A stretch of 63,975 bases of DNA, filler included, from Rhizaria sp. SCN 62-66 (lineage: Eukaryota), in NCBI GenBank assembly GCA_001724265.1. It is 4 parts of 4 records of this genome, joined end to end, with 100 filler letters (N's around TTAATTAATTAA, not from the genome) between each part and the next. Parts side by side here need not be neighbours in the genome. Positions count along the whole stretch, not along the records: positions 1 to 14,431 come from MEDY01000508.1; positions 14,532 to 29,543 come from MEDY01000509.1; positions 29,644 to 58,171 come from MEDY01000511.1; 1 more part is not named here. One strand, written 5' to 3'. Below, piece after piece: positions 93-42,758 of this stretch (position 1 is the stretch's first letter; every line of letters starts with the position of its first letter). A program made the position numbers and the translations under genes. The notes under the pieces are model-generated. The model had not been told where the DNA came from and made no database searches. It saw only the letters and a program-made list of their open reading frames with translations.

Positions 93-3000
93 TTACATGT
101 ACATGTCATCGTCGCTACCATCGTGACCATATATAGCCTCAGCAGCGCTTGCCTCGGCGTCAGCAACTGCGGAAGCAACAAAGCGCGCGCCGCTGCGCCC
201 GGCGCCACGGCGCGTAGGGCGGTACTCATCATGCGCAATCCACTCACGCTCGCGGTTCTCCGCCGCCGCCGCCGTCGCCGCGGCCTCAGCCTCAGCCTCA
301 GCCGCCGCCGCCGCCGCCGCCGCCGCCGCGGCCTCGGCCGCCGCCGCTCCAGCCGCGCGCTGCGCCGCGCCCCGGCCGTCCCCGCTGCCTCCTAACCCGC
401 GCGGTCCCCGGCTGTGGCCCTTGCCCCTGCTGCTCTTGTGGCCGCTGCCTTTGCTCTTGCTAGCACGCAGCCGCGCCTTGACCTCCGGCCGCGGCGGATG
501 GCGGATAAGCACTGGCAGAGTGGAGCAAGGCAGCGGCCACTGCTGGTCCATGAGCGCCCCGCCGGCGCCGAGCCCCAGCGCCGCGCCTGCCGCAGCAGCG
601 GCTCGATCAGCGGCGCCGCGCGCGGTGAGTCGCGGCGGCCGCTGCGCAGGGGCAAGCTCCCGGGTGCCGGCGCCCGCGGCGACTGCCAGCGCAACCAGCT
701 TGTGCACGCCTGCGGCCGGGAGAGCCAGGGGCGCGCCGGCACCCGCGGTCACACGCACCGCGCGCGTTCCTTTGCCGTCAGTTGTGCGAGCGTCAACAGC
801 GAGCGCGGGTGCACCGAGAAGCAATTCGCATGCAGTCGCGACGGCGCGCGCCTGCCCCAACGCCACGAGGGTGCGGAACAGCCTGCCCAGCGCGTGCACA
901 TGCGCAGGTCCAGTCGCCGCTGCACAGTCAGCAGCGTCGGCGTTCCCTTCACTGTCGGTGTACGGCGCTACGGGGTCGTAAAGCCCTGCGCGCATTGAGT
1001 CCTCGGCGACAAGCCCCGCGGCCGCAGCGCGCGCAGCCGCTGCACCAGTAAGCATCGCCGCGCGCTGCTGCGCCGGCGCCGCCCCGGCCGCCGCGCTGGG
1101 CGGGGATACCGCGGTGGCAAACACTTGCGCCTCGAGCGTCGCAGTTGAGACGCCGGTGAGTCGACGGCCGGAGAGGGCGAACCCGCCGTCGCCGTTGCCT
1201 GCCTCGCGCGCGCAGAGCGCCAGCCCCGCAGCGCCTGCGGGGAGGCTGGTGCGCGGGAACAGCATCGCAGCGACCGCGCCAAGCGCGGGCGGCGGCGCGC
1301 GTTGGCCCCCGCGCTGCGCTAACGCAGTGCCGGCGGCCGCGACGTCCGCCAGCGCGGGGCCCAGCCCCATCTGCGCAGCGCGCGCGGCCGCAGAGGAAGC
1401 CTGCGACGGCGCGAGCAGAGTGCGCACGGCTTCGCTCACGCGCGCGCCGCGGCCAGGGCCGCCCGCGGCAGTGTCGGCGGCCGCGACGGCCGCGAAAATG
1501 GCTTCGTCGGCCACGGCGGGCGCAGTCAGTGAAGCCAATACCAAGGGGGCGCGAGAGCCGCCGATGAGAGGCAGCAGCGGCGCGCGCGGCTGGCACTCGC
1601 ACGCGGGGATCACGGTTGGCGCGATCACCAGCGCGGCATCATCTGCGGCCGCAGTGGGGAGACTGCTCTGAGCGCAAGAGCAGCGCGCGGGGGCCGGCGG
1701 CAGCGGTTCCAGTTCAGCCGGCGACACGACGGCAGGCGCGTTCGGGCGCAGTGCGGCGAGAGCGCGTGCTGTGTGCGCGTCGACCGCAACAGCGTCACGC
1801 CGGAGCGCAGTCGACACGGCAGCATGCGCAATGGCACTCGCCTCACTGCCCGCGTCGTCGCTGCACTACACAGTCATGGGCGCAGTCACGGTGTGAGGGG
1901 CAAGCAGCGCCATGAATACAGCGCGCGCGGCGAGCGCGGTGGACGCCACAGGCACTGGCGGCGCGTTCGGTGGGTTCATGTCAGCGTTTGAAGCGGAGAT
2001 CGGCGCAGTGTGTGCGAGCAGCTGCGCAGCGCGCGCGGCCTCAGTGGCGGCGGTCAGTAACCACGCCTGCGACAGCGCGGGGTCACCGGCCGCCGCAGCC
2101 GCAGCCTTAGCCGCCTCGGCCGCGGCGTCAATGGCTGCCGGTGGTACAGAGGCGGTGTCGGCCTCGGTCACGGCTGTCGGCGCGGCGGCGGAGACTGCGG
2201 CGCGCGCGGCAGCCACGGCGGCGGCGGACGCGCGGAGACGCCGGTGCGCGCGCCGCCGGGCCGCAGCGGCCAGCACTGCCTGTTGTAACGCGAGACTGCG
2301 CAAAAGCAGAGGAACCCACGCACGCGGTGGCGCTGTGACAGCAGCTGCTGCTGCAAATGCTGATGCTGGTGCATTTGAATGCGCATCTGGTGCAGTGTGA
2401 GGCTGGTGTGCGCGTGAGTCAGTTGGAGCTTGCTTCGGCGCCGCCGCAGTCACTCCGTTGACCGTTGTCGCGTTGTGACTGCTGCCAGAGGGGGGCCGTT
2501 GCGCGGCAATGCTCGCGGGGCGGACCGGGGCGGCCACAGTCCTCGCAGCGCCAACAGCACTCGAGCAAAGGCTTGAGTTGGCGCCTGTGTTAGCGTGTGA
2601 GTGAGCGTTTGTTGCAGCGTTGTTGCTGTAACGGGTTTGCCGCGGCACAGCAACAAGTCCGCGTCCGCCTGAACTGCCACTAGATCCACTGCCGTTGTTG
2701 TTGCTGCAGACTGAGGGAGCATCGGTGTCGTTCTCAGCAGCGGGCAGAGGAGCACACAACAGCGCTCGGATGGCGGCCAATGACACCGCATCCTCACCCT
2801 CCGCACGCACGCTCGCAGCGGGAACAGCGTTTGCTCTTGGATTCACAGCAGGCGCTGGGGATGTATATGTCGTTCCGGCCGCACTGGGATAGCGCGCAGC
2901 TGCGAGACCGTCGAGTGAAGCGCGCGAGTAGCGAGCCAAGCCCTGCTGTTGTTGCTGCTAAAGCTGTTGTTGTGGCTGGTGAAACTGTTGTTGTTGCTGA

Positions 3001-4289
3001 TGCTGTTGCTGTTGCTGTTGTTGTTGCAGTAATGACGCAGAGGTTGAGCTCGAGCTCGCGCTTGGGGGCCCAGTCGGACGCGGCGGCAGCGGAGGCGGCG
3101 GAATCGGCCCATAGCGCACGCGGCCACGCACTGCAGCGGCGCCCCCGGCGCCTGACGCTGCTTGCGCGCTGCTGTTGCCATAGGCGGCCGGACCTGCCCC
3201 GGCGCTGTTGCCGCTGTTGCGGATGGTAGAGTTGCCGCGTACGGCGGAGGCACCGCGCGGCCTCTGCTGCAGCTGCTGTTGCTGCTGATACGCCGCCGCA
3301 GCAGCGTTGGCAGCGCTCGCCGTGTGCGCGTTGAACTGCGCGTTGTTGGCGTGGCTGGAGGGGCTGGGGTGCGTTGGCACTGCAGAGCGTGCGCGGGACA
3401 GCAGCTCATCGACTGCAGCCACCGCCGCGGGGGCCGCAACAGGCGCCAAAGCAGCTGCCGCAGACCGCGCTCCGGTCGCAGCCACAAGGCCCTGGGAGCT
3501 CATGTGAGAGTGAGACTGTCCCTGTGCCTGTCCCTGCGAATGTGAATGTGCCTGTCCCTGCGACTGCGACTGGGACTGGGACTGTGGGGGAGCGCGGGCA
3601 CGGACGGGGGCTTGCATGCCAGCGCTAGAAACATTATGAGTAAAATGAGCTGCAGTCGTGTGGTGGCCAGTGGCGGAAGCGACACGCGTGCGGTTGCGGG
3701 GAACGCTGTGCGCAGCCGCAGCGGCGGCGGCCTCGGCGGCAGCGGCCTCGGCGGCAGCGGCGGCCTGGAACGCAGCGCGCGCGGAGCCCAGTGGCTGCGC
3801 AAACCCCAGTCCGACCGTGCTGGGCTGCGTCGCAGCAGCCGCGGCGGCAACGGCGGCGTCGGTCTCGGCCTCGGCGGCCGCTGCGAGCGCGGCGGCGGCT
3901 GAGGCGGCGGCACAAAGGTCACCTACGAGCGCGTCGCACGCCAGCGCCACGTGCGGCCACGCGCCAATCGATAGCCAGCGCGGGGCGCGGCTCGCGGCGT
4001 CGGGACTGCTTGCAGTCGCGCGGTGTGACTGGGAAGGTATAACGGGCTCTGGCTCAGGCTCCGGGTGGTAGGGGATCAGAGGCGACTCTGGGCGGGAGAG
4101 TGAGGGACCGCCAGTCGCGAAGGACGTGTTGTGCGAGTAAGGTGCCGGGTCGTACTCGCGTACGGGCTGAATAGCGTCCAAGTATCGCTGCGAAGCTGTG
4201 TACTGCAGCCCGAGCTCGCGCAGTGACGCGTAGGCCGCCGAGCGGTCGGGGGAACCATCGGCTGCGGGCGGGGCTGCGAACGGATACAT
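93..4289 (-). CDS. Hypothetical Ala/Gln-rich protein, ~1398 aa, single exon if in-frame TAGs at 2958-2960 and 1866-1868 are sense
   Basis: ORFs 2958-4289, 1866-2939 and 93-1817 share one frame and are separated only by TAG codons in GC-rich sequence with no intron-like stretch. ATG at 4289, TAA at 93. Confidence 0.75.
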
Positions 4290-4837
4290 CGATACCGCAC
4301 TTCAAACAAGGACACAGCGCCAGGAAAAGCCTGTCATAAAACACAAGTCAAATTGGGAGTATATTAACACGTGTTCAACTCCAAAATACCATTGATATTC
4401 ACAATAACTGATATAGCCATTCACGAGTTATCAGACAGAAACCTCCCTCCCTGCTTCACCACACTCGACAGCAGCCACCTTGCTGTCCACAAACGAGTGG
4501 ACAGCAAACGCATTTCTGCGAAACTCACTTAACTTTATAAGGCATTGTATATGTTATGTCGTGTTTCAAAACAAGCAAAATGCTGTCCTTGCTTTTTGTA
4601 GTTGTTTTTAACTAGATTCTCAAACTCAAAGAACTTGAAGTCGATTAGATATGGTCAAAAGTACAAAAGACTCACTTGAAGTTCACTCGTCACTCATCAG
4701 CGGGATTGAGAGTAGAGATTATGCATAACGCACGCTCACAAAGCAATGGATTTTCTGATATAATAATTGACTTTTGGTTGTACTTAACAGTTTCTGTTAA
4801 GCTTCCTTCCGTAGGGCGACAACTTTGAACAGAGAGC

Positions 4838-7143
4838 ATGGACTCGCACATGCAGCTAACAAGTACGCCGTTGACACACGCATCAGGATGTGGTCCACGT
4901 TCATCTGAATCTTTATATTCTCACACCAATTAGTCTTATTTGTTTGTTGATATGTACATTTTACTGGTCAAGAGCGCCAAGAGGTGCAAAGCAACCCATT
5001 TTCGCTTGCCTTTGCAAGTCCACTGCCACACTTGGCATTACCACATGCGCAATCACTTTTGAACGCCGAATTTGTCTTCAGGCCGCAATATGGCCTTTCA
5101 CCATTGGGTCCTATCCAGTCGGCCGAGCTCTTTATGCGTCCGCTCTATATGCAGCTGCAATGGGAGTCCTTGCCTCCTCCAGTCCGCGACGCTACACACC
5201 CTCGCGATATGATGACGGCTCACACCTCGTTGCAGTTTCGAGATGTGATGGCGGCTCGGGATCCAACCTAGAATACATCACATGCGTCCAAGACGCGTGT
5301 GCCGGCAACAGCGGGGCCCGCGCAAGAATATCACGGCCGTATCCGACCGAAACAGACGCAGGCTCAGTCACTGAAGAAAGTGCAGCCATAGGCGAAGCCC
5401 TTGGCGTCACCACTTGCTGAGACGCCACTTGAGCAGAGCCTGAATCAATACTCATCGACGCATATCAACTACAAACGGGTCGCTAGATCCTGTTCTATCA
5501 AAAAGCCCAAGCTGTCGATCGAAAACAAGAGCTCTCTGCTTCAGCCGCAATATCCCTAGTCGCAGACATCTACTAGTACATCTTTGAATGCTCCGATAAC
5601 GCTAGGGTTACCGGTAGCGATGTCTGCGCCAACCTCCGACTCTTTGACTGTGGCGGCTGCCACAGCAGGGGAAATGCATAGGCGCCGCGCGCGGGGGCAG
5701 TCACAACAATTGCCGCGCTCAAAACAGCTACCGGTCTCGTTTTCAGAAGCGCAATGCAAGCTGCCGCTGCTGTACAACGATGACAATCAAGTATCTGCCG
5801 CCCGCGTTCTAAAAGTCCCCGTTGAAGCATTGATTGGTTTCCCGCCGGTAATTGTAAGACTGTTGTGCGAAGCAACGCGCCCCTCCTTCTCCGTGTTCGT
5901 TGTGAGTCGACTCGTCGACCCGGATACTGTGCCGCCATACGTTTCCTCACGTGGCGACCTTGACACATCGACAGCTACGCCCATTCCAGCGTCTGTGAGT
6001 GGTTACAGTGGTGCGGAATTGTTGAGTGAAAAACAACTGCGCGTCTTTTGGTCTCTCACCAATTATCGCTGCATGCTTTACTATCGTACATATGCTTTTG
6101 AAAATCCGTGTACACGAGCAAAATTTATCAAGTCTTGGCAATCCAGGGCGCTGGTTTGGCAGGCACAGAACTCTCAACCTAAGCCTTCTCTCTCCAGTGC
6201 GCCACCTCAATCCGTCACTCGATCTGGAGCTGTTTTCGATTCTGCACATCCGTCAGGGCGTGCAGTAGTTCCAAAGCAAGAGATGGATCTGCCGCCCGAT
6301 TTAGAGCCCGTCTCACCTGTCGCTCAACGTGTGCAGACCGCCACAAAGACAGATGACAGTGTGCATAAAGTCACAAAGAATGATGACCGTGAGCATATAG
6401 CCATGTCTGAACGTGGTTACGTTCTGTCACGCAGTCGCAGTGTGATCAAGCCCACGGGAAGCGCGATGGCGAGCGAGACTCACCGTGCCGCGTTGGTCGG
6501 TAGTGACAACAGCCTTGCTTTTAGTGGCAGTGACTATGAAAGCTGGGTGGCAACAGGCGGCGCACGGTACAACAGCAGCAGTAGCAGTGGAGACAGCTCC
6601 AGCAGCAAGACTGGTGTTAGCAGTGGCAACAGACCAGATCCTATTTGTGGCGTTGCTTCTAAGAGTGAGACCAACACGACCCCAGTCGCAGTTGCTGCTC
6701 GCGGGTTTGCAAAGAGTAATGCCCCAAGTTGCGTCACTCCGATATTCGCGCCCACTCTTCCAAGAGGCCCCGTTGCTGTGCACGGCACAGTCTCTAGTGT
6801 GGTCTCTGGCGCAGTCTCTGGCACGATCTTTCGCGCTGTTTCTAACACGGTCTCGGGCGCGGTCTTTGGAGCCATCACAGGCGCTGTTACTGGCAGTGTT
6901 GCTGGCGGAGTTACTGGCAATATTGCTAGCGGATTCACTGGGTAGACAGCGCCGCGCGCGCGAGTGGACGGCGATGACTGTGAGAATGAGCGCCAATGTG
7001 TGCCACGGTCGAAGCGCACTTGGCAGTCTGTGGCGGGCCATCATCAGCGGCGGCAGCGGCGCAAGGTGGTTCTTGGTCGGGCGGGCATTGCATCTGAAGA
7101 TGAGGATAGTGACGTGAAGGAGTCTACCTTGGAGGCGCAATGA
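4838..7143 (+). CDS. Hypothetical protein, ~731 aa (exons 4838-4862, 4973-7143), four in-frame TAGs
   Basis: ATG 4838 and intron 4863-4972 (GTACG..AAG) restore the frame. The frame stays free of TAA/TGA for ~2.2 kb, with TAG at 5269, 5389, 5557 and 6943, and ends at TGA 7141-7143. Confidence 0.65.
6784..6942 (+). repeat. Degenerate 12-bp coding tandem repeat (GTVS/GAVS/GAVT tetrapeptides)
   Basis: ggcgcagtctct-like units repeated about 13 times within the CDS. Confidence 0.55.
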
Positions 7144-7646
7144 CAAAGTTGAATTCAATCGTGGCGATGATCACAATCAAGGCCACTCGATGTTGACAAC
7201 AGCATTGATGTGTGGAGATAAAATTTAATGAACTGGTGTGATCACATAGTCTGTGATATATATTACTTGATTTATTATTTTCAAATAAACAATTCTTAGA
7301 ACTGAAAACGATCGCTCCGTAAACACAAGCAGAGTCGGCAACAATCATATTGGAGTGGAACAATAAGCATATATGAATAGACGTGTGTTGCTGGAGAGAG
7401 TATGATACTATGTGTATTCAATTATGAACAAAGCTTATTAGGGCGATTTACAATAGTCTGAGATCCGTCGCCGAGAGTCGTGCGCTGGAAAGCACTCACG
7501 AAGCACTCGACTGCGATAACTCAATAACATTTTGTTGCAATTTTGAGAGAGGTTGTTGTTGGTGATGAGGTTGTTGTTGGTGATGTGTGTTTTGTCATTG
7601 CTGACCGCATGCGTGCGTGCGTGTGTGCGCGTGTGCGTATGTGACT

Positions 7647-8912
7647 TTACGCCTGCTGGCACGCGGGGCCGCCGCCTTGGTGCGAGCGGCCGCCGCCTTG
7701 GCGCTCGCGCTCTTCCTCCTCGGCCTCCTCCTGCATCTCGCGCTCGCGCTCGAAACGCGCCTGCTCCTCCTTCATGTCCACGTCCTGGACGTCGACGACC
7801 TCGACGTCGTCGCCCGCGGGCAGCGCCTTGGCGGGGAACAAAGCCGCCGGGAGATTACCGGCCATCGCGGCCGCCGCAGCGCCCTTGAGCACAGTGCCGG
7901 GGAAGACGATGTCGAACTCGACGTAGAGATTGCCGTTCTCGTGCGCGCCGGGGACAGTCATGCCCTCGTCGACGATCTTGCTCACGGTGCCCGGCTTGAC
8001 GACGGTCTTGGAGTGGTCGATGACAAGCTGGCGGCCGTCGAGGTGCGTGAGACCCATCTTGAACCCGCACAGAGCCTCCTGCAGCGAGATCTGGCGCTTA
8101 ACGAACAGGTGGTTGCCCTCGCGGCGGAACGTGTCGTGCGCCTTCATCTGCAGCACGACGACGACGTCGCCGGGCATCGTGCCGGGAGTCTCGTCGGCCT
8201 CGCCCTGGAAGACGATACGCTGCTCGTGGCGAGCACCCTTGGGCACGTAGACGTCGAGGTTCTTCTTCTCCTTCTCCGTCTTGGCGCCATCGCACTGGCG
8301 GCACCGCGCAGAGGCCGGAATGACCGAGCCCTGGCCGTTGCACTGCGGGCACGGCACCTGCGACTGCGCAACCATGCCGGGGCCGATCTGGCGCATCACC
8401 ATGCGCACGCCCTGGCCGCGGCACGGCTGGCAGGCCGCGACCGTAGAGCCGCCCTTGCCGTCGCAGCCCTTGCAGATGATGTTGCGCGTGAGACGGAGCT
8501 TCTTGGTGACGCCCTTGTACATCTCCTCGAGCGTGACGGGGAGGGGGAACATGACGTCCTCGCCACGACGCTTCTGCGCGGGGCCACGACGACGGCCGCC
8601 GCCGCCGAAGAGGTCGAACATGTCAGACATGTCGCCGCCGCCGCCGCCGCCCTCAAGGCCCTCCTCGCCGCCCTCGTCGTAGAGCTGACGCTTCTCCTTG
8701 TCGGACAGGATCTCGTACGCACGGTTGATCTCCTTGAACTTCTCGGGGTCACCGCCCTTGTCAGGGTGATGAGTCATCGCCATGCGGCGGAACGCACGCT
8801 TGATCTCGGACTCGTCCGCAGTGGGCTCAATCTCGAGAGCCTTGTACAGGCCCTTGTTGTCCACCTCACGCTTCGCGGGACGGCCACCGCCGCCGCCGCC
8901 CATGCCGCCCAT
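7647..8912 (-). CDS. DNAJA: DnaJ/Hsp40 type I chaperone (DNAJA/Ydj1 family)
   Basis: J-domain with HPDKGGDPEKFKEI, G/F region, four CxxCxGxG motifs, C-terminal CaaX (CQQA) followed by TAA. The true start may lie upstream (see findings). Confidence 0.96.
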   Translation of the reverse strand: MGGMGGGGGGRPAKREVDNKGLYKALEIEPTADESEIKRAFRRMAMTHHPDKGGDPEKFKEINRAYEILSDKEKRQLYDEGGEEGLEGGGGGGDMSDMFDLFGGGGRRRGPAQKRRGEDVMFPLPVTLEEMYKGVTKKLRLTRNIICKGCDGKGGSTVAACQPCRGQGVRMVMRQIGPGMVAQSQVPCPQCNGQGSVIPASARCRQCDGAKTEKEKKNLDVYVPKGARHEQRIVFQGEADETPGTMPGDVVVVLQMKAHDTFRREGNHLFVKRQISLQEALCGFKMGLTHLDGRQLVIDHSKTVVKPGTVSKIVDEGMTVPGAHENGNLYVEFDIVFPGTVLKGAAAAAMAGNLPAALFPAKALPAGDDVEVVDVQDVDMKEEQARFEREREMQEEAEEEERERQGGGRSHQGGGPACQQA

Positions 8913-9500
8913 GCCACCAAAACCGAAGTTGAACTACGAGAGGGCAACATCGAGAGCGTGGGGAGAAAGCAATAGTCCGGGCGGAAAAGCAGTCAACAGA
9001 GTGATGGTAGCAGAAGAAACGGGAGTCATGGTGGGAAAAGTGTGGGAACGGCGGTCGAAAGCGGGGAAGAGAGGAAGATCAAAGAAAACAGGGAGGTTGA
9101 GTGGTCGGAGAGAGTGTGTGTGGTGAGCGTGGGTGGATGGGGGGAAACGAGCGATCGTTGTGAGGGAAAGAAACGACGGAAGAGCAACGAGAGCGGAGTG
9201 GAAGGGCTCTCATCATGGTTGTGGTAATAGTGGTAAGGATGAAGAGTGCGCGTTGCGGCGGCGGGGGGCATCAAGACCAGTCCGAAGAGGTGAGAGTGGC
9301 GAGCGCAACTCGGTCTGGACTGTCAATCCGCAACGCGGGATATGTGCGCATCTATACGCAAACAGAAAGACAGCATCACGAAAAAGAAACCTGGTTGCGC
9401 AAACTACCCGAAGAGAAACGTACCATTTTAAATAGATCCCTATAAGTTGGTCCAAAGAACGAAATCGCACCGACCATGGGTGCTGAGGCGGCGTTCCGCA

Positions 9501-9514
9501 CAATATTCTCGAAT
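9501..9514. promoter_or_regulatory. Possible heat-shock element upstream of DnaJ
   Basis: cAAtaTTCtcGAAt is an imperfect three-unit alternating nGAAn array, ~300 nt upstream of the putative first exon. Confidence 0.3.
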
Positions 9515-10758
9515 TCGGACTCGGACAGAGACCGAAAAAAGATTTCCACCACAAACGGAAAACGCATCCCCTTCTTGTCGCACTCGATCCCACTTACACA
9601 TATATCTACGAAAACAAATGGTCATTGGTTGTGTACTGTACTATGTGCATTTCGGTGTTATATTCACACTCATGGTATTCCATCTACTGCAACCCGATTT
9701 TACTACGAAACATTGTACAAACAATGCTCTTTAATGGCCTGTCATCTTTCTTCGCTGACTTGTCGAAGCTGATGAGAAGCTTTGAGTGTATGGTGGTAGA
9801 TAAAGACGCAATAGTGCGTCGTTGTGGTGACGTAATGCTGACAGCCATGAACAACGCATTGTGAAGATGTGTCATCATGAAGGCCAGAGCAACACGGCAA
9901 CTGGCAAACACGTTGCATGTGCCAGTGAAGAGAAAAGCAACTAAAAATAGCAACTAACCGCAAAACGGCACTGATTCGAAGCAAAAACAGTGAGAAACGT
10001 GAATACAAAATCTAAAATAAAAACCCACAAGAAGAAGACCAGCAATGTCAACCTAAGTAAGCAGAATCGTGCCTCGCCAAAGCCTACTCTCACTTTGCAC
10101 ACATTATAAATCCGATAAACTGTGTGATTTGCTACAATGAATGTGAAAAACAGCAAAACACAAAGTCGTGGATAGCAATTCCAAACACAAGCACAAAAAT
10201 GCCGACAAAACAGGGGCAGCACTCGTAACTGATTCGCCTTTACACTGCGCAGGGTTGCGGATGAGATCTTCGCGGATCTGGTAGGTATGGTAGACACAAG
10301 AGACGGTGCGATCGCTTTCATATTCTTATGAGCAGAAAAGAGTCGCGCGTCCTTATGAATACATATACAAGCAGCGGCGCACCGATCGACCACACGCCAA
10401 ATGCACGATATTGTGGTTCAGTTGCTAGTTTGTTCTTATGTTGATGATTGTCATGCTGCGTTGCGACTGCCGCGAAACAATTATTTGCGCAAGAGTCGAA
10501 GCCGTAATGAAAGCGAAAGAAAACTGGCCCTGCACAAAGCCAAGTGGTATTAGAATCTAATGAAGTCCGTCAAAAAGAATGAAACAAACTGTACAAGACA
10601 TAAACGCAGAAATAATGAAGCATAAGACTCACGCAAAATAACAGGAAACTATCTCGCAACTAGACAATTCTCTCCGTCACTCTGCGAGTTAGCTTCACTC
10701 CAGTATAATGCACTTTGCACCATTAACACCCGCGCAGCAGCGGGCTTCGCACCCGCTT

Positions 10759-12526
10759 TTACGCGTTGATGCTTGGTGCAGCGTCGCCGCCATTAACACC
10801 GCGCAACAGCGGGCTGGTGGCGGCGGACCGCGCCCTCTCCGCACCGGCAGCGCCGGAGCCGTCAGCGGCCGCAGCGATAGACGCCGGGATTACCACGGCG
10901 TCCGACATCGCGGACTTGACGACCACGGCCTTGACATCGGCGTCGCTGTTGGCGGCAGCGGCGGCGGCGTCGGTGGGCTCAGTGGCGGAGGGGGTCGTGC
11001 TGATGTTGACGAGAACGAAACCGGCGACAACGCACACTGCGCCGCCGACGTAACTCGCGCCGTAGCGCGCAGAATGCACGATTGAGTCACTGATCATCGC
11101 GCTAGGGATATTAAGCGTCGTGCCCAGTGTGGCGACGAGCGGGGAAGTTAGCAAAAGGCCCTGTGCCCACACATAGTCGCCTAGGGGCGCGCCAACGATG
11201 GCACTCGCAACAAGCACACTGTGCGCGGAGAGAAAATTAATAAAATAGATGAGTGCAAGTTGTCGGTAAGATATTATCAGTGATATGGTGTGATATGAGA
11301 GATAATGTGGAGCTTGGGCATAACAGAGCGCATCGCGTCTGTTGTGTGTTCTGTAAAGAGTAAAAAAGAAGCGATTGTGAAAGTGAGTATATAAATTTGA
11401 CGTACAGGACAGTGTGGTCAGAGGGAATGAAGAGCTTCTGCACGCCCGCAAAGTGCATCGACACGACACCAATGAGCAAGTACAAAAAGTTGAACATCCC
11501 CATAAAGCCGAAGATCATCAACATGTTCGCTTTACCGGGGCTGCGCGTGAAAAACCGTGCCAGCGGACCCTTTTGCGCGTCGGCCGCCTCCACAGCCGCG
11601 ACCGCGGCGACCGCGCTGAAGTGGCCGGCCTCGGCGGCAGAGAGCCCGTCGTCCGAGAGAAGCGCCACCGACATACCGCCCTTCTTGCTTTTCACAGCAA
11701 CAGCAGCAGCGGCTGCGGCGGCCTCAGCCTGAGCGTCCGCGTCGGTCGCCGCGGCGCCGGCGGTCTCGTCGCCCATGAAGCGGTCGAGTGACAGCGAGTA
11801 GACGGCGTAGACAAGCGCGGACGTCGCGGCGGCCGCGTCGCCGGGCAGCGACTGCTTGGGCGCGTCAGGGTCGCTAGTCGGTGGCGTGGAAAAGGCGACG
11901 AGGATAGCGCCGCCAAGCGTGCAGATCATGGCAAGCGCGGGCCACATCTGGAGCCGCGTGCCTTGGAAGATGAGGCCAAGCACCATGACCCAGAGGCCGG
12001 AGGTCGCGGAGAGAATCGTGTTGGACGCCATCGACGTGTGGCCAAGAGCCAAGTTATACAGCACGGAGATAAGGGACCAGAGCGGGGCAAGGATAAACGC
12101 CGTGTGCAGGTGGCCGCGCAGGGTCATCATACCGGGGTCGCCGGCGCCGGAGCCTTCGCCAGCGCGAAGCGGAGTGGAGCGGCCGCGCGTGCACACGTTT
12201 CGCAAACAGCACTGCTGGATGAGATAGACGACCAAATACAGCGAAAACACAAAGGTCTCCACGAGCGTCACCACGAAGGGGCGCTTGAACTCCTTGAAAA
12301 CCTCCTGCACCATGAGCGCGCCGAAGACGGCGATGAGCACGAAGAGACCGATGAAGAAGAGGCCCAGTGCATACAGCCATGAACTCTGCGCGGCTGCAGT
12401 GGCGCTGCCGGGCGGGGCGGGCGCGGAGGGAGGGGCGGGGACCGTGGAGTTGTCGACCACTATGGAGTCGCTGGTCACCAGGAACGGGTCGGAACCGAGC
12501 TTTTGGTAATGGGTAGCGTCCGACAT
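10759..12526 (-). CDS. DMT/EamA-superfamily transporter, SLC35F5/Thi74-like (exons 12526-11406, 11218-10759)
   Basis: Multiple TM helices; motifs TSMASNTILSATSGLW and DYVWAQGLLLTSPLVATLG; GTACG..CAG intron 11405-11219 joins the two ORFs in frame; TAA stop. Confidence 0.85.
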
Positions 12527-13554
12527 TGCGCGAGTGAAGGGAAAGGAGAAGTGGGGAGCTGCGGTGTGGCTTCTGACGCGGTGTTGTTGTGCAAGATAAA
12601 ACTCGGTCGGGTGCTACAAGGGTGGGTAGTGGATATGGTGCTCGTGCTCAGAGCAGGATAGCCGCGACTGTATCGGCAGGGCGGTGCCGCGAGCAGACCA
12701 AGGGGAGCAGGAGGTGCCCAAGGAATCGAGGGGAAGGAAATGCATTCAGAAAAAGGTGTGGACATTAGATGAGCAGGCATCCCAAATAGGAAATAATATT
12801 CGTCGAGTATTCAATCTAATCAAAGTAGTATCATGACTAACGACGATCCCACCATTGAGAACAGCGTCGTCTGAATTCGGCTTTCTGAGGCCTCGGCTAA
12901 GACGCTCCTCGCGGCCAGGATTTTCGGCAGTCGGTGTATGCGACACAGAAAGCCTCTATCGAGTATGCTGCGACGGGTTTTGCTTGAGCGTTAAGACTTT
13001 TGCGCGTTTTTCACTAAGCGCACTTGAGAAACTGCGGTATACTCTGTATTCAAGCCTGTTTCAGCAACTGCGCCGACTCGGTCGGGCCGAGCCGAGCCAG
13101 GGTCTGCTGCCCACGGTCAGTACAGTCACGGCCAGGAGATGTTACCGCGCATCTTGACAGACAACACAACAGTAAGTCGATCTTGCTCAACCAACAACTA
13201 ATAAGCGTTAAAACAAGCACTAACTGGACGAGCATAAACATTTCGATGCATACCAATTTGTATTTATGCATAGAATGACAGTTGACGCGAGCTCTGACTG
13301 TGAGTGCGCGTCTGCTGCGGCACGCAAAATGGCAACATGTGGGTTAAAGGCATGCGTCCTGTGGGCCCAGCAAGGGTGACACTCTGCATGCATGTAAATG
13401 GGATAAATCTCGCGTGCTGATTGTGGGGGTGACAACAGTGATCAAGAGCATAACAGGAAACCATGTGAGCGAGTGTTGGCTCGAAAAGCGACGACAAAAT
13501 GAAAATAACTTTAAGCTTAAATGGCTTTATGTTACACTTTACACCGAACAGATC

Positions 13555-13800
13555 TTATAAAGTCAACGACAAGTGCTTGTTGCAGCTTGCAGCAGGACAA
13601 CGCCCGGCCGCGCAGAGCGACTCAAACCAGCTCACAAGGCTCGTATCAAAGGGCGGCTTTACGGAGAGCAATGTCATCGTCATTGTCACAGTGAGCAACG
13701 CGGCCGACGGGCACGGCGCTGTGCCGCACAAAAAATGCGCGGCGCATGGCTTGAAAACAAGGAATATCAGTGTGTCACATGGAGGCTCTCCCTTCCAGTG
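13555..13800 (-). pseudogene. Diverged tandem copy of the Cys-containing domain at 14122-14397, with two compensating frameshifts
   Basis: Encodes DTLIFLVFKPC..(shift)AVPVGRV..(shift)KPPFDTSLVSWFESLCAAGRC, matching DTPWFIVFKPC..AVPVGRV..KPFDSTVLQWLEKHCKAGKC. Confidence 0.6.
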
Positions 13801-14121
13801 TTCTACGCATTGTCACTCCCCAATTTTAGCGGTCCAGCTTTTTTCAAGCTAAAAGGAAATTATTTATAACATACATTTCATCGAGATTGAGTGGTATGAA
13901 TGCCAGCTATTGGAATTAAGTATGAAAAACAATATATGTTCTATATTCACGAGGTTTTCTACATAAAGTGGGAATCTGTGCATATGTGACCTGGTTTCCG
14001 TCTTATGTGACGCAGTCTTGCTGAGTTGCTGACACGCCTTGTAATCACAATTTCAAGGTTTCATTTTATTTTGGGTTATAAGGAGCTCTATAGAATCATA
14101 AAGCAACATATAAAACATGTG

Positions 14122-14397
14122 TCACCTCGGCCTGAAAAGTGAGAAGAGGATGAGTGAGTGCGTTGAAGTGCCGTCACTCTTACTGCACTTGCCCGCCTTA
14201 CAGTGCTTCTCAAGCCATTGAAGCACCGTAGAGTCAAACGGCTTGCTTCCGCTGTCGTGCGTCGCCGGCTCCTTCCCGGAAATGCACGACGTCACGCGGC
14301 CAACGGGCACAGCGCCGCGCAGCAGGCTCGCCGGACACGGCTTGAAGACGATAAACCACGGGGTATCGTAGGTGCCCGCGTTATTTGTCAACTCCCT
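14122..14397 (-). CDS. Probable 3' exon of an unknown gene truncated by the assembly gap
   Basis: GC-rich open frame after a pyrimidine-rich CAG acceptor; protein-level similarity to the neighbouring copy supports coding origin; TGA at 14122. Confidence 0.5.
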   Translation of the reverse strand, partial: RELTNNAGTYDTPWFIVFKPCPASLLRGAVPVGRVTSCISGKEPATHDSGSKPFDSTVLQWLEKHCKAGKCSKSDGTSTHSLILFSLFRPR

Positions 14398-14431
14398 GGA
14401 AACAGCAGCACGGGGATACATCAGCACCGTA

Positions 14432-14531: not shown

Positions 14532-14532
14532 A

Positions 14533-14605: not shown

Positions 14606-14684
14606 TGCTTGTTGTACACGAGCTTGCTGAAGCTTGTTACCTGTTAGAGTTGAGCAGGCAAGGAGAAGGGAAGCAAAAAAAAGG

Positions 14685-28800: not shown

Positions 28801-29543
28801 GCCGAGGCGGAGACGCGCGCACTGCAGGCCGAGGCGCGCGGGCAGGAGCTCGCCGCCGCGCTGGCCGCTGCGCGCGCGGAGGCCGCCTCCGAGGCCGCCG
28901 CGGCCGCCGCGCGCGCNNNNNNNNNNNNNNNNNNNNNNNNNNNNNNNNNNNNNNNNNNNNNNNNNNNNNNNCGGAGCTGGAGACCGCGACGCAGACGGCC
29001 GAGAAGGCTCTGCGCGCGGAGCGGCTGCTGCGCGCGACGGCGACCGATGAGGCCGCGGCGCAGACGGCCGACGTGCGCGCGGCCGCCGCCACCGCTGAGG
29101 CCGCGCTGAGCGAGACGCAGGCCGAGCTCGCCCGCGCGCGCGCCGCCGCTGTGGCCGCCGAGAAGGAGTCGGCCGAGTCCGCCGCCGCCGCCGAGGCCGC
29201 CTCGCGCCGCGCCGCCGCTGCCGACGAGGACGCCCAGCGCGCGCGTGCCGCCGCCGCCGCCGCGAGCACCGCGCAGAGAGCCGCCGAGGACGCCGCTGCG
29301 GGCGCTGAGTTGCGCGCTGCCGCCGCCGAGGCTGCGAGCGCGCGCGCCGAGGCCGTCGCCGCGGCCGCGGGCAAGGCTGCTGACGACAGCGCCGCGCGCG
29401 CCGCCGCTGCCGAGGCCGCCCGTGCCGCCGCCGAGGCGCGCGCTGCAGGCGCGACCGAGGACGCCGGCTCCGCTGCGGCGGAGGCTAAGACGCGCGTCGC
29501 CGCCGCTGAGGGCAAGGCCGCCGCCGCCGAGGCCGCTGCGGAG
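25852..29543 (+). CDS. N-terminal-motor kinesin (kinesin-1/KHC-like) with long Ala/Glu coiled-coil tail; 3'-truncated at gap
   Basis: IRVYCRIRP, AYGQTGSGKT P-loop, NEQSSRSH, LVDLAGSE, HVPYRDSKLTRLL; intron 26259-26423 (GTACG..CAG); internal N gap at 28917-28971. Confidence 0.93.
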
Positions 29544-29643: not shown

Positions 29644-29686
<43 letters not shown>

Positions 29687-32188: not shown

Positions 32189-35100
32189 ATGCGGGTGAAC
32201 GTGTTTCTTTTTACGCTGTTCAGCGTGGCCATCTTGGCGCTTTTCTCGCACCATGCGCGTGCCGATTTAAGCACCGACGCCATCCAAGGTCCGTCACACA
32301 TACGCGCCTCTGTCACAGCCAGAATGCATTCCTAAGCCATGAAACCCACTTCTCATATGTATCAAATACGTGTATATTCTGCCCATGTGTCACCACTCTA
32401 TAGCGATTCGTGATAAGCCTGAGGCCGAGCTCTTAGATGACGACTGGTTCATCGACACCTTCGTACGTCCCTTGCAACGAAACAAGATATAACTCATCAA
32501 AATCAACGTTTAAAGATATAATGGTGTACTAACATATGCTGTATTAGCATTCGCGCTGTATATGTTTTTCATGATTTATTCACTGCTTATTTTGCGTTTG
32601 TAGTACGATGTTCTGCACGTCTACCTCCCCGAGACTGCCCTTTTCGAAGTGCCAGCCCGATACCTCTCTGCCTCCAGCACTGCTACAGCAGCTGCAGCGA
32701 CCGCCGGCGTAGTGTCATCGCTTACTCTGACGCACTACACACCGCTGCACGTTGCGCTTGTCTTGCGCAAACATCAACTCGCCTCCGCGATCCTTACGAG
32801 TAAGTAACACAGCCACATACAACGCACTAAATCATGGATATCTTAGCCGTATCAACATCAGATGTTAATTCATTTCAGTACTCAATACTTCATGTAGATT
32901 TATTTATGTCTGGTGATTTTCTTCAAATCAATCGTGATTTACCCATTATATCTTATGTTTTTTGTCTATCATACGCACATGTGTAGCGTGCACGCAAGAC
33001 CAGGACCACCCCGCGTACGCCCAATCGCTCCTCCTGGATCACAAAACGGACCCTGCGACGGGCCGCTGGCTTAGCGCCGGGGCCGAGCCGCTGCCCGTGG
33101 AGCTGGCTGCCCCCACGGCGGCCGAGTGGCAGGCCCGCAACTTCGTGGAGAGGCAGTTCGTCTCGATCGCTGGAAGGTACCTTCGCTTAACTTAAACAAA
33201 ACCAGAGATATATCATGATATCACTGTCATTCATCATGAATTCACTGCATATTGTTAAACTATGTTTGTATTTTGTTTCTGTTATGTTTCGTTGCGATAT
33301 CATTTCACTAACTCCGTTTTATCTGCATTTGTGTCGTTGCACTTTTGTTGTTTAGGTACAACCTGCCTATGCTGTCGCTGCTGACCCTGCCCGTCCTCAC
33401 CGGCGACCTGCGTGGCCTCACCCTGGTCCACTCGCATGGTCACCGCGCGGGCCTCACCGACGCCAAGACGGCCCAGATCGACGCTCTGCTGACCGCGATC
33501 GAGCTCGGCAATGTCGCAATGACGCGGGCATTGCTTGCCCCGCCGCTGTCCGCACCGCTGCTCCCGGCTGAGCGCGGACACGTCACGTCGGGGCAGCAGC
33601 CCATCCACCTTGCCGCCGTGGTTGGCAGCGTACCCATCGTGCGCATGCTGGTGAAAGAGTTTAAGGCGGATGTGAATGCGCAGGCCAACGGCGACGGCGA
33701 CACGGCGCTGCACGTGGCCGCACACGTACGTCAAAATAAAATCACGTAAAAATGATGAAATAGCTGCAAATCTTTCATAATACTGCGTTAGATTTGCAAT
33801 ATAGTTTTATTTCTTTATTTGTTTGTATTCTCTATCAATTTGAGACATTGACAAGTTAACCATCGTGTCAATGATTGAAGTACCTCAGAACACAATCAGC
33901 TCACGAACGGAACATGTGCTGTCTTGGGTGCAACATTGTTTTGTCAATATCGAATGTATAGTATGGGCACTTGCGGTTGACGCAGTGTCTCGTTGACGAG
34001 CTCAACGCGCTCTTGGACATCGAGCACGGCCAGGTACGGAAAAGCATCTTAGTCCTAGTCACAATACGATTGACAAATCTCGTAAAGTTTCATGAATAAT
34101 GAAAATCGACTCTTGTATGGTGTATTCTTCTTGTTTATATCAATCTCCTTTGGTTTGGGCCAATTCGATCTCATCCATGTCTATCTCTCATCGATGTCAA
34201 ACTTGTGCTTGTCTTCGCTTGTCTGTGCTTGTTTTGTGTATTTTGCGCACGTCTTTATAGGACCACCATACGGCCTACACACTGGCGCTGCACTGGGACC
34301 GCGAAGACGTCACCGACTACTTAGAATCTAAGTACGCCGAGCGCGGTCTCCCTCTGCCACCGCTACCCGAGTACGTGATCGCCGCAGTTAGACAACCGCT
34401 GCATACACACCACGCCTGGTGTCACTCTCACAAATCATATGTCTCGGTAACGACTTAAAACTGCTATAATGTAGGATCATGCACCATATTTTATTATTCA
34501 TTGTTTTCTTTGATAATTATCTCACCCAACTTTGTTTATGTTTATATATCCCCAATATCTTATCTCACATTTATTCAGCGACTCGCACGTGGCCCGCGAC
34601 CACAAGAACCCTGCGCAGACGAGCATGACGCTCCGCAACCGCCGGCGCGCGCGCAACGCCGCCGCCGCCGCGGGCGCCCCCGAGCCCTCGTCACAAGTCA
34701 TTCCTGGCGCGAACACTGGTGGCACTGGTGACGCTAACGATGACACTGACGACAACGACGCGAATACGAACAACAACAAGAATAAGAAGAAGAGTAAGAG
34801 TAAGAGTAACCGGATCAAGACCGACGGCAGTCAGCAGTCGCCCGCGCCGCGCCACAAGGGCGCGCCCATCCTTGAGCTGCCGCCTCTGGCCATCGACCGC
34901 GCGGCTGAGCGGCTTAACTTAGTGCACCGCGCAGAGGCGATGCACTTACGCCGCGCGCACACGGCCAAGTGGGAGCGCGCGGTGAATGAGGCGAACGCGA
35001 GGCGGCTTGACTTAGAGAAGGAGGGCCACTCGCAGGCGCAGATCGACCGGGAAGTGGTGATGCCAGCCCCCAACGACGTGGTGTTGAGCGAGGAGGAGAA

Positions 35101-35497
35101 GGAGGCCGTGCTGACTTCGCAGCCCTTAGTCGATCTAAGGGCCCGCGTGCAGCTGATGACGGACCGCGACACGGTCATCGTAGATCAGGGTCTAAGTACC
35201 CCCCTAGACTCCGCCGCCGCCGGTTCGCAGCACGGTGGCGTGGTGAGCGCGGAGGAGTTCCTCCAGCTCAGTCTGTGCGCCAACGAGAAGGGCTCGAAAT
35301 GTTCGGCGGCGCGCGCGCAGGCCGCGGTTATGGCCGGGGCGCGGCGCGCTGAGGCTGCGACAATGCAGCGCGAAATTGACGCCGCGGCCACTGCTGCTGC
35401 TGCTGCTGCTGCTACTGCGGAGACCAAGACAGTCAAGGTTGCAGTTGGTGCGGAGAGCAGCAGTGACAGCGAGGGTGTTGACAAGGACGAGCTGTGA
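32189..35497 (+). CDS. Ankyrin-repeat protein with signal peptide and C-terminal KDEL, ~671 aa, 8 exons (32189-32288, 32404-32462, 32604-32799, 32987-33176, 33356-33725, 33962-34033, 34261-34370, 34579-35497)
   Basis: Seven GT-AG introns give one continuous frame; ankyrin motifs TPLHVA, QPIHLAA, DTALHVAA, HTAYTLA; hydrophobic N-terminus ending ARA-D; ends KDEL-TGA. Confidence 0.85.
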
Positions 35498-39095: not shown

Positions 39096-42000
39096 TCACA
39101 GTTTGAACCTGTCGCCGAAGATCACACCGACGAAGTCGTCGTTTTGGTTCGGCGCCGCCAGCTGCTGCTGCTCGCTGCCAGCTGCAGCAGCCGCCTTGCC
39201 GTCGCTACAAGTACTGTTGTTGTTGCTGTTGTTGCTCTGAGAGGTGCTTGGGAGCGCAGGATTGTGCTGTTTGATGCCAACGCTTGTGTTGCCCTTGAGG
39301 TCGAGTGCAGCAGTGTCACCCCTATCGTCTGCAGCGGCACTCGCACTCGCAGCAGACTCGGCGCCCCTGCTCGCATCGGTGTTCTCAGTACCGTTGCTGC
39401 TAGGACTCACAGCGACACTGGCGGAGCTGCTGCTCGCCGAGGCGCCATGGCTGAGGATCGCAAGCTCCTGGCGGCGGCGCTTCGAGCCCTTGGCCGTGCC
39501 CGGCGCGTGCGCAGGCGCCTGCCCCTTAGACTGGCCCTTAGACTTCTGCTGGCCCCTTGAGTGATCGCCGCCCTTAGACTCGGAATCACCAGCGTCAGCG
39601 TTAGCAGAGCACTCGCCCTTGCACTCGTCGTCAGCAGCATTGCCGTTGCTGTTGTTGTTATTGTGGTGATGATGCTTAGATTTGCTGTTTGCGGTACTAC
39701 TGCTGCTCGCGTCGCGGATGCGGGCAGCTAGAGCGTCGGCCGCCACGGCCAGCGCAACCTCTCGGCTCCTGCCGCTGATGTCGCGGTCAGTGCTGCAAGG
39801 GTCGGTGCTCGTGACGGCGTCTTTGTTGGGGAGCAAGTTCGCATCGTAGGTGTAGTCGTAAGTGCTACCGGGTAAGGGCCTAGGCGCGAACGCGGACACG
39901 CGCATCGGGTTTAAGTACCCATACGCGAGACCCTTAGACTCTAGCTCAGATGTGAGGATCTCCTGGCCATCCACACTAGAGCTTGGCTGAGAGTCTTTGG
40001 CACTGACACTGCTGTCTGAGGGGTGAGCCTGTTGCTGTTGCTGCTTCGCGAGCAGAAGTTGCTTGATAATGAACTTCTCCTCGTACTCGACATCGTTGAG
40101 CGGGTTATCTTTCGCGCACGCCACGATACCGCGCAGCGTGCCGACAGTGGCCACCACTTCGGTGATCTCCTTCACCAGGCTGGCGACCGTCGCGGCCTTG
40201 TGTATCCGTTGCCATGCCGCCACCGTGGTGACCCCGGCGTGGGCCTTCATCATCTCCATCGCGTTGTAGCGAATGTTCTTGACAGCGTTCGTGGTGGCCA
40301 CGGCCGCGGCCAAGTACCGGCTCAGCGTCTCGGAGACGGGCGCCATGTAAGGGGCGCGGGTAAGGGGGGACGTGTAAGTGGCCTCGTCGCTGAAGCGCCA
40401 CACCCAGCCCAGGTCCGCGGCCGTGTAAGGGGGCGCGACACTTACACTCGAAAGCTTTTGTTTGGCACTTAAATCATCCGAGGCACTTACATTGTCCTTG
40501 TTGGCGCTCACTGTGTTGGCACTTACACCACCAGTCGAGCCAGAGTCAGTGCTGTTCTGTGCAGCGCTCGCGTCCGCACTGGGGCGAGCATCAGTGCTCT
40601 GCGTTTGTTGCTGCTGTTGTTGCTGTTGTTGTTGCTGCTGCTGTGCCTTTTGCGCCTGCGCCATCGCCCGCGCCTCCGCCTTGGCCTTCGCGGCCTCGAC
40701 GACGGCGGCCCGCGCCTCGAGCCATAGCGCAGTCGTCTCGTCGCGCGCGGCGTCCGCCCTCGCGGCCTCACGGCGCGCAGAGTCTGTCCACCAGTAAGGG
40801 AGCCCGCCGCGCGGCTCTGAAGTCACGCCGCCCTGGTCCGCAGCAGTAAAAGGACTCGCGGTTGCCGCATCTGTGGCAAGCGCGCGAGTAGTCTTGCTTT
40901 GACTGAGGACATCACGCCAGATCGGCTCATACGCGTTGATCCATGCCCCGCCCTTGACGGAAGCACTGACAGGGTACTTACTCTCAGCAGCAACAGCAGC
41001 AGCAGCAGCAGAGTTGCTGCGACTGTCAGCGCCAGCAGTGACAGCTGCATCTGTGCTGTTGCTGTTACTGTTGCTGTCCTCGGAGGGCAGGTCGTGGTAA
41101 GTTAGGCCGCCGTCGCTGGAAGTTAGGCCGCAGTACGCCGAGGGCAGCGCGAGCGGCACGTCACGCAGCTTATGCGAGACGCCTGCGTTGCCGAAGGAGT
41201 CGGTAAAGTGCCACGGAACCAGGTGGGGGTTGAAGGCGCAGATGGTGTCGACGGAGGCGCGGCGGCAGCCAACGAGGGAAGTTACGCCGCCAGTGGTACT
41301 GCTGCCGCTGCTGCTTGTGTTCCCAATGCTGTTCGCGTTGCTGTTGTTGTTGAAGTGCAAGTCGTAGCTACTCGTGTAAGAGGAAAACCCGTCGCCCTGA
41401 TCATAATCACGATCGTCACCATGAGCGTTGCGAACGCCGTGCTTACCGTTTTGCCGCAGGAGATACTCGTTCAAGTCGACGCCGTGGCCACAGTCGTCAA
41501 AGTAGTCGTGCCACTCTCCCGGAGACAGAGGCGACGCCCCCTTAGACGCCTCGGCCTCGGCGGAGGATCTAAGGGGCGCGCCGAAGACGGACGGGTTCCA
41601 CATGGCGCCGCGGCCCACAAGCACGCCCGCGGCGCCCGTGACCTGGCGGTAGCGCTGCACATCCTCGAAGGTGAACACGTCGCCATTGTACAGCAGCGGC
41701 ACGCGCGCCGCGGACTGCAGCAGCGGGAACTGCAACAGCGGCAGCGCGCGGAACCGCGGCCGGTCTGCGCGGAAGCGGCAGTGGACGCCAATCGCGGCCA
41801 CTCCCATGGCCTCAAGGCGGCGGACCAGCTCCAGCGTGTCGCGAGGGTCGGCCAGCATGCGGATCTTGGCCGTGAAGGGCAGCGCCGCGGGCAGGTTGCG
41901 CTGCAGCGTGGAGAAGATGTCCGCCACGTGTTCCGGACGCGTGAGCAGCGCGGCGCCCATCGCGCCCTGCAGCGAGAACATCTTCGGACAGCCCATGTTG

Positions 42001-42758
42001 ATGTCGATGGCGCGGCAGTCACGTGCCACCACTGTCGCCGCGGCCAAGGCGTCGACGCCATTGCCCGCGCCCAGCTGCACCACAAGCCGCTCGCCGCGGT
42101 AAGTCTCGAGCGTGTGCTGCTGGTCGAAGCCGACAACGTGTGCGGGGCCGTCTAAGGGGGTACTTACATTGCCCGAGGCGTGGCCGCCCGTGAGCGCGTT
42201 GTGCGGGGAGGTCTTGGTGGCGAAGCGGACGATGCGCTGGTTGTAAGGATCTCCGGTCTAAGGGTCCGCGACAACGTAGCGGCCACATGTCAGTAGCTTG
42301 CGAGCGACGAGCTCCTCCGAATAGAGCACGTTGCAGCCGTAATCCTTCGCGACGAGGCGCGTCGCGAGCGTGGAGACGCGCACCATGGGCGCCAGCGCGG
42401 CTTGACTTCGGTACTCCCAAGGAGCGAAGTCGCTGGGGTGGGACCAAACGCTCTGTTCAGCTGCGTTGTTGTGGTAGCGGCCGGTGTTATTGAGCACGGA
42501 GCCGTCGCCAAGCTCGTTGCACTCGACCAGCGCGACCTTACCATCGCCACCGCTACTACTGCTGGTGTGGTTCGAGAGGCGGGAGAAGTGGCAGAAGACG
42601 CCGCGGGTGTTGCGGATGCGGTTCACGCCGCTGCGAAACGCGCGGGGGCCGGTCAAAACAGGGCTGGCATCAGGCTGAGGGGCGGTGGCGGTCGCCTGCT
42701 GCTGCTGTTGCTGCTGTTGCTGTTGTTGCTGCTGGTTGAGTTGGTGGAGGTGGGACAT
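39096..42758 (-). CDS. DUS2: tRNA-dihydrouridine synthase, DUS2-like, ~1220 aa with low-complexity expansions; in-frame TAG at 42258-42260
   Basis: LAPMVRV..YSEELVARKL lies upstream of the TAG; VVQLG, DINMGCPK..GAMGAALL, TAKIR, GVHCR, NGDV, GRGAMWNPSVF lie downstream in the same frame. Confidence 0.88.

Follow-up and report, generated by a model that had tools for sequence, protein, structure and literature searches.

A 63,975-nucleotide window (the whole stretch of DNA analysed here, from assembly GCA_001724265.1, Rhizaria sp. SCN 62-66) contains eight TAG codons that appear to be translated inside genes, while the recognisable gene ends are TAA and TGA. We put at about 0.7 the probability that TAG is translated and TAA and TGA terminate in this DNA, so that its source joins the known class of codes in which UAG is sense and UAA and UGA are stops (NCBI table 15 type). 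The window consists of four contigs (1-14431, 14532-29543, 29644-58171 and 58272-63975) joined by N/ttaattaattaa spacers. An initial annotation had listed the eight TAGs as splitting four genes on three contigs; all were confirmed in the sequence, on contigs 1, 2 and 3, and each is in frame on the strand given in Table 1 with open reading on both sides. The evidence that a TAG lies within coding sequence is good for those at 1866, 2958, 25094 and 42258 and weaker for the four in the orphan gene at 5134-7143.

The TAG in the Dus2-like gene

The TAG at 42258 interrupts a Dus2-type dihydrouridine synthase gene. The protein has 496 homologues at E<=1e-5, the best of them 53% identical, and matches the Pfam Dus family over residues 276-453 (E 1.9e-42). 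When it was aligned with 14 homologues (15 sequences), 12 invariant columns were found upstream of the TAG (Y20, A27, P28, M29, V30, R31, R38, G45, Y50, E52, E53 and R64) and the remaining invariant columns downstream of it in the same frame. The 166-residue piece that precedes the TAG matches the N-termini of Dus proteins by itself (E 2e-18, with 61% identity over 49 residues, and 5e-21). The next Met comes only at codon 88 after the TAG, within the invariant motif DINMGCPK, so the conserved stretch between the TAG and this Met needs read-through.

The same TAG is covered with 0 differences by contigs, also of low depth, from three other metagenome studies (X3 record 8, X4 record 15 and X5 record 21). 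A polyA metatranscriptome contig (X6 record 31, 197 nt, 42171-42367) runs across it, likewise without a difference and without a gap. The initial annotation had allowed that the TAGs might be base-call errors and had looked to RNA for confirmation. At 42258 the agreement of the three DNA data sets and the RNA contig excludes a base-call or assembly error, and the TAG is kept unchanged in the one contig from a polyA library, which speaks against splicing and editing. X6 showed no spliced joint at the introns of the 14-3-3 gene and its cover is partial; nothing is concluded from either.

Terminators, frames and composition

Our own tally of 14 recognisable gene ends agrees with the earlier one: TAA closes 7, TGA closes 7 and TAG closes none. 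Were 20-30% of ends TAG, a count of 0 in 14 would have P = 0.044-0.007. TAA and TGA are genuine terminators. The CaaX end of the DnaJ-A protein (CQQA-TAA), in which C417, Q418 and Q419 are invariant in 6 aligned sequences, and the gene at 34538-35497, which ends KDEL-TGA, had both been cited earlier for this point and both bear it out. Likewise, the statement that host gene models are free of internal TAA and TGA holds over the 10,086 codons of the single-exon models, where 8 TAGs, 0 TAA and 0 TGA were in frame. Internal TAA or TGA as frequent as TAG, a pattern that had been named as speaking for pseudogene decay, is not seen in these models.

Open frames that merge across a stop were assessed with a symmetric control, in which stops of each kind with long open frames on both flanks were counted. 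With flanking frames of at least 300 codons there were 2 cases for TAG and 0 for either TGA or TAA; at 150 codons or more the counts were TAG 3, TGA 1 and TAA 1, and at 100 or more TAG 8, TGA 19 and TAA 5. The TAA and TGA cases sit on antisense frames of GC-rich genes. Merging of frames is therefore insufficient where the flanks are shorter than about 300 codons, and the sites have to be argued one by one; since short merges are a matter of chance in GC-rich DNA, the case rests on homology, missing starts and composition and not on the length of the frames alone.

Start codons are far from the TAGs. After the TAGs at 2958, 1866 and 25094 the first Met is codon 327, 166 and 249, respectively, and for these three and 42258 the intervening DNA is 62-74% GC. 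In the control frames, the first Met was at codon 5-83 in 9 of 10, mostly after AT-rich sequence, and one control exon had no Met. Composition was measured over the 150 nt downstream of each stop. GC was 0.33-0.53 (median 0.415) after the 14 accepted terminators, whereas it was 0.50-0.72 (median 0.62) after the eight TAGs (Mann-Whitney P = 9.8e-5). By downstream GC, none of the eight TAGs resembles a gene end.

Codon-position periodicity adds to this in the two long genes whose proteins gave no Pfam match. In gene 93-4289, for which the segments around the TAGs were searched up to E<=10, G at codon position 1 was 0.40, 0.45 and 0.54 across the three segments, compared to 0.16-0.38 in the other frames, and this periodicity keeps one frame across both TAGs. 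GC around TAG 1866 is 0.67 upstream and 0.72 downstream. Codon-usage scores (log-likelihood and relative synonymous codon usage) separated Dus and the conserved genes well, but gene 93-4289 could not be told apart by them from its wobble-sharing antisense frame, and no support was drawn from them for this gene or for gene 5134-7143. In gene 15668-25309, searched as a whole protein, G at position 1 of the 248 Met-free codons that follow TAG 25094 was 0.56 in frame 0 versus 0.16 and 0.27 in the others; GC is 0.72 upstream and 0.61 downstream of this TAG. An N-terminal C-x2-C...H-x3-C motif, read by eye, lies upstream of TAG 25094. The context of that TAG, DVI*LSSSSD, presumably forms a SUMO-interaction-like motif that would tolerate Gln or Leu, and the protein has several stretches in which hydrophobic residues are followed by acidic residues or Ser. 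Its extreme C-terminus has a weak, sub-threshold match to Slx4 (E 0.14), the one match that the Pfam search up to E<=10 gave for the segments around the TAGs. It is possibly an SLX4-like scaffold, which we offer as a lead only.

The orphan gene at 5134-7143 lies in a GC-elevated body that extends from about 5000-5100 to 7143. The 39- and 55-codon pieces that follow the TAGs at 5269 and 5389 contain no start codon. After the TAG at 6943, GC is 0.60-0.66 and does not drop, to 0.33-0.43, until after the TGA at 7141.

The initial annotation had reported no intron-like sequence at the TAGs. We likewise found no intron that explains any of the eight, although spliceosomal introns do exist in the window (Table 1). 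The kinesin gene is split by one of 165 nt, which marks the DNA as eukaryotic, and the 14-3-3 gene has two of the same kind. The 5' splice site of these introns is strictly GTACG; they are AT-rich, some 140-190 nt in length, and end with CAG or TAG. Genuine introns that end with TAG include the one at 43387-43574 and the one whose acceptor precedes the last exon of the TPR gene (57486); TAGs of this sort were left out of the in-frame count. For 5 of the 8 TAGs there is no GTACG donor within 600 nt upstream. The donor-like sites available to the other three, at 3242 in GC-rich coding sequence and at 4863 in a spacer, would require introns that are GC-rich and 280-700 nt long, a kind not seen among the verified ones.

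Table 1. Positions of the read-through frames, in-frame TAGs, control genes, introns and tRNA genes in the window
Feature	Position	Strand	Description
Read-through frame	93-4301	-	1402 codons; 2 TAG
Ala-rich orphan gene	93-4289	-	Met 4289 to TAA 93
In-frame TAG	1866-1868	-	in gene 93-4289; open flanks 363 + 590 codons
In-frame TAG	2958-2960	-	in CAG/CAA polyglutamine tract (QQQL*QQQQQ); open flanks 447 + 363 codons
Read-through frame	4951-7143	+	730 codons; 4 TAG
Orphan gene	5134-7143	+	four TAGs; low GC at third codon positions; ends TGA
In-frame TAG (weaker)	5269-5271	+	inside GC-elevated gene body
In-frame TAG (weaker)	5389-5391	+	GC-elevated gene body; downstream GC
In-frame TAG (weaker)	5557-5559	+	Met 21 codons later; standard-code start at 5620 possible
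In-frame TAG or standard-code terminator	6943-6945	+	GC continuity versus gene-caller product
DnaJ-A gene (control)	7647-8912	-	ends CQQA-TAA; three Pfam DnaJ domains; no in-frame TAG
tRNA cluster	14533-15318		Glu-CTC, Gly-GCC, Met-CAT; ARAGORN, Rfam found 2 of 3
Read-through frame	15668-25465	-	3265 codons; 1 TAG
Long low-complexity gene	15668-25309	-	3,213 codons; ends TAA
In-frame TAG	25094-25096	-	72 codons after start Met; Met-free downstream stretch, periodicity, GC
Intron, kinesin gene (control)	26259-26423	+	GTACGT...CAG; GC 0.38; Pfam kinesin profile split 36-74/71-327
Gene ending KDEL-TGA (control)	34538-35497	+	tail ...VDKDEL; GC 0.62 before and 0.35 after the stop
Intron	37173-c.37320
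Intron	37521-c.37710
Read-through frame	39096-42929	-	1277 codons; 3 TAG, two upstream of first Met
Dus2-like gene	39096-42758	-	Met 42758 to TGA 39096; single exon
In-frame TAG	42258-42260	-	in conserved Dus domain; alignment, homology of upstream piece
Intron	43387-43574

Several other observations concern TAG in the window. Counted off frame in the 11 single-exon models, TAG (88) is rarer than TAA (117) and far rarer than TGA (385), despite the GC-rich composition; the depletion of TAG thus holds in all frames of these models and not in the reading frame alone. A possible ninth in-frame TAG was seen at 12614-12616 on the minus strand, in a transporter-like gene, where the frame runs 43 codons from a Met at 12745 to the TAG and then 29 codons to the usual start Met. 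GC is 0.50-0.68 up to about 12750, and a 5' untranslated region is equally possible. The TAG at 43572, directly after an ATG, was tried as a ninth sense TAG and rejected, being the 3' end of the intron that starts with GTACG at 43387.

Residue, decoding and competing explanations

If TAG is sense, Gln is our leading guess for the residue, at somewhat under even odds, because one TAG lies in a CAG/CAA tract and Gln is a frequent outcome in the published cases. The initial annotation had held that the contexts favour Gln. One of them hints at it: the TAG at 2958 is within the tract, and a C-to-T change from CAG would explain it. The Dus column at 42258 has G in 11 of 14 homologues and K, R and Q once each, but lies at the edge of a lineage-specific insertion, so that the hint at Gln comes from the one polyglutamine context. 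Leu is neither supported nor excluded here.

Decoding would fall either to a tRNA whose anticodon is CUA or to a near-cognate one, and recognition of UAG by eRF1 would be weakened. No eRF1 gene was found in the window. The tRNA genes seen number 22, far from a full tRNA set: 3 are in the window, where they are clustered and contig 2 starts inside the array, and 19 are in six short metagenome contigs (L081-L086) found by a metagenome scan with the 3' half of the tRNA-Glu. These contigs carry arrays of Glu-CTC, Asp-GTC, Gly-GCC, Gly-CCC and Arg-ACG, with 2-4 tRNA genes per 1.7-2.7 kb and GC of 0.41-0.45. These arrays could belong to the same organism, as paralogues, or to its close relatives.

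A number of points weigh against a translated TAG. The tRNA(CUA) that the initial annotation had proposed to search for was not found among the 22 tRNA genes. TAG is rare, at 0.8 per 1000 codons compared to 4.2 per 1000 for CAA in the training set (17 CAA in 4,003 codons), and is carried by 4 of about 16 genes in the window; DnaJ, the kinesin motor, Serinc and 14-3-3 have none. Only 1 of the 8 TAGs is within a conserved domain, and none of the other three TAG genes belongs to a Pfam family. On antisense frames, open stretches of 200-300 codons also merge across TAA or TGA by chance. Under a null of nonsense mutation 55-64% of new stops would be TAG here, where third codon positions are rich in GC, which gives a P of only 0.009-0.03 for 8 of 8. 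On the RNA side there is a single contig of low depth; its library may carry DNA, and the contig is evidence of neither splicing nor translation. Gene 5134-7143 had no homologues in a HMMER search of 1.84 billion representatives other than itself and 4 low-complexity matches, lacks the codon bias of the other window genes, and gives no coding signal in the codon scores. It can be read as running from Met 5620 to a TAG 6943 terminator, as gene callers do; the resulting 441-residue product (P0247) is on record from 6 contigs, on all of which the stop directly after the open reading frame (ORF) ending at 6942 recurs. The test of TAG as a terminator is a small sample, 0 of 14, yet this gene could be an instance. 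A second would be contig 4, where ORF 59782-60936 ends at TAG 60937 in the standard code and read-through would carry it to 60999, if this is a real gene end of the same organism. Contig 4 has lower GC (0.46-0.52) and ORFs without Pfam families, with weak RING-like and coiled-coil matches, and may be a mobile element. Finally, 64 kb were examined, and the four contigs come from one bin that possibly holds more than one genome.

Three other explanations were weighed. That UAG is still formally a stop, but a leaky one read through in weakly expressed genes by near-cognate tRNAs such as tRNA-Gln(CUG), with neither a dedicated suppressor tRNA nor full reassignment, strikes us as improbable. It fits the rarity of TAG (8 in 10,086 codons) and its confinement to four genes of low codon bias, as well as the missing tRNA(CUA) and the reading of gene 5134-7143 as ending at TAG 6943. 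Against it, TAG ends none of the 14 genes; no read-through context is common to the bases that follow the eight TAGs (T, C, C, A, A, G, T and A); very little full-length product would come from a gene with four such stops in a row; and coding-like GC persists after TAG 6943 up to the TGA. The standard code, with the TAGs as premature stops in decaying or dispensable genes or as chance run-on frames in GC-rich DNA, is a little less probable again. The excess of TAG among expected nonsense mutations, the chance antisense frames of 200-300 codons and the lack of a known domain in 3 of the 4 TAG genes would all be accommodated by it. Decay is hard to reconcile with frames of 1402, 730, 3265 and 1277 codons that contain no frameshift, TAA or TGA, with a Dus domain that is intact on both sides of its TAG and keeps all invariant columns, or with the recurrence of the same Dus-gene sequence in several independent metagenomes and an RNA library. 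GC and periodicity continue across the TAGs, and the P for 8 of 8 under the mutational null is 0.009-0.03.

We regard as very improbable that the TAGs are removed by unusual introns, whose 3' AG would be that of the TAG, or by RNA editing, or that they stem from errors of assembly or base calling. Some real introns here do end with TAG, and an in-frame 18-nt GT...TAG string ends at 42258. Excision of these 18 nt would, however, delete residues kept in the homologues, and the RNA contig retains both the TAG and its flanks. Verified introns are 140-190 nt with GC of 0.38 and a GTACG start, and at the TAGs there is no such donor and no drop in GC. As to errors, the three other DNA data sets agree at 42258, and the stop after the ORF ending at 6942 is found on 6 contigs.

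The preferred reading remains that TAG is translated while TAA and TGA terminate. Its frequency of 0.8 per 1000 codons and its absence from the conserved genes of high GC at third codon positions (GC3) suggest that reassignment is young or inefficient. A more specific version, which we hold to be unlikely, is that the source is a non-ciliate eukaryote, GC-rich and of an unsampled lineage, in which an early or incomplete reassignment of UAG is seen under way. UAG would then be gone as a terminator and translated, but would still be about 5-fold rarer than whichever synonymous Gln codon is least used and kept out of genes with high expression. If true, the window would show in nature the stage described as ambiguous intermediate or unassigned codon, and the change would have arisen under GC and not AT mutational pressure.

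Source organism and known UAG-only codes

The stretch at 41300-43000 was found in bioreactor, wastewater, microbial-fuel-cell and activated-sludge metagenomes from several studies and in the one polyA metatranscriptome. Because it recurs there, we take the source to be an uncultured eukaryote of wastewater and bioreactor communities. Exons are GC-rich (GC3 0.86 over 1,903 training codons) and introns and spacers are AT-rich, so that gene bodies are visible from composition alone. Recognisable genes encode DnaJ-A, kinesin, Serinc, 14-3-3, the Dus2-type dihydrouridine synthase, Hep_59, a TPR protein and the KDEL-ended protein. There are also several orphans rich in polyalanine (polyA), polyglutamine (polyQ) and polyasparagine (polyN). 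Homopolymer runs are frequent in the window proteins, with about 40 consecutive Asn, a 13-residue polyQ and long polyA among them (c.43920-44040, 54409-56391, 39096-42929 and others); the Asn run is coded by AT-rich repeats (GC 0.33) within otherwise GC-rich genes. Contig 3 opens with a (TG)n microsatellite (29644-29680), which is probably why the assembly broke there.

The closest metagenome relatives of the DnaJ protein are 76% and 67% identical and all others 56% or less; those of 14-3-3 are 83% and 69%. These sequence matches indicate that a small clade of uncultured relatives exists, without placing it. The best named DnaJ matches are Vitrella (48%) and coccidians (45-46%), and the nearest Atlas cluster is dominated by oomycetes. 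A search for relatives in GTDB genome contigs with the DnaJ alignment gave 80 loci, all of them DnaJ of bacterial or archaeal metagenome-assembled genomes at 29-39% identity, and two scans of viral contigs gave one unrelated giant-virus contig and nothing else. We take the multi-gene contigs of 14-28 kb, the 140-190-nt GTACG introns and the GC3 near 0.86 to be unlike those of ciliates. Because standard gene callers split or truncate such genes, as in the 441-residue product from Met 5620 to TAG 6943, catalogue proteins of this clade are likely to be fragmented.

Until 2017 mechanistic constraints were thought to keep UAG coupled to UAA, and each new UAG-only lineage tests how freely uncoupling evolves. 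The first demonstrations that UAG alone had been reassigned came from the rhizarian exLh (Leu) and Iotanema spirale (Gln) (PMC5304391). Further cases are Scotinosphaera (Ser), Protocruzia tuzeti (Gln) and three events in phyllopharyngean ciliates (Leu once and Gln twice) (PMC11687900). The rarity that the initial annotation had claimed for such codes is therefore dated, since the paper of 2024 lists more UAG-only lineages (PMC11687900). We found no report of UAG reassignment in a eukaryote of wastewater or activated sludge, the supplementary files of PMC5304391 and PMC11687900 aside.

Iotanema spirale (Fornicata) is, like the source of this window, a non-ciliate protist in which UAG alone is reassigned and UAA and UGA are stops (PMC5304391). 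Its residue was derived from many conserved sites in a transcriptome (PMC5304391), whereas here there are 8 sites and none is informative; the window also differs in its GC-rich exons and its rare use of TAG. In exLh (Sainouroidea), terminators are only UAA and UGA (56 and 15 there, 7 and 7 here) and UAG is scarcer in highly expressed genes, as in the window, but 384 in-frame UAGs were seen in 71 genes compared to 8 in about 16 genes here (PMC5304391). The phyllopharyngean change, in which UAA is still a stop, was similarly discovered in metagenome assemblies (PMC11687900). In those ciliates, however, UAG occurs in 78-91% of genes and UAA ends 87-98% of them (PMC11687900), whereas here about 16 genes include 4 with TAG, and TAA and TGA close equal numbers. 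Scotinosphaera, a green alga in which UAA is a stop, is again a non-ciliate with UAG alone reassigned (PMC11687900). The best named Dus2 homologues of the window are from plants and green algae (about 40-44% identity), but the best named DnaJ matches are alveolate (45-48%), so nothing places the organism among green algae.

The window is distinct from the published UAG-only cases in its sparing use of TAG together with its very high GC3. The sparing use may expose an intermediate stage of reassignment and, with coding sequence this rich in GC, codon capture driven by AT pressure is not obviously applicable. The candidate differs from the published cases also in its origin, an engineered wastewater setting from which it has been sampled repeatedly.

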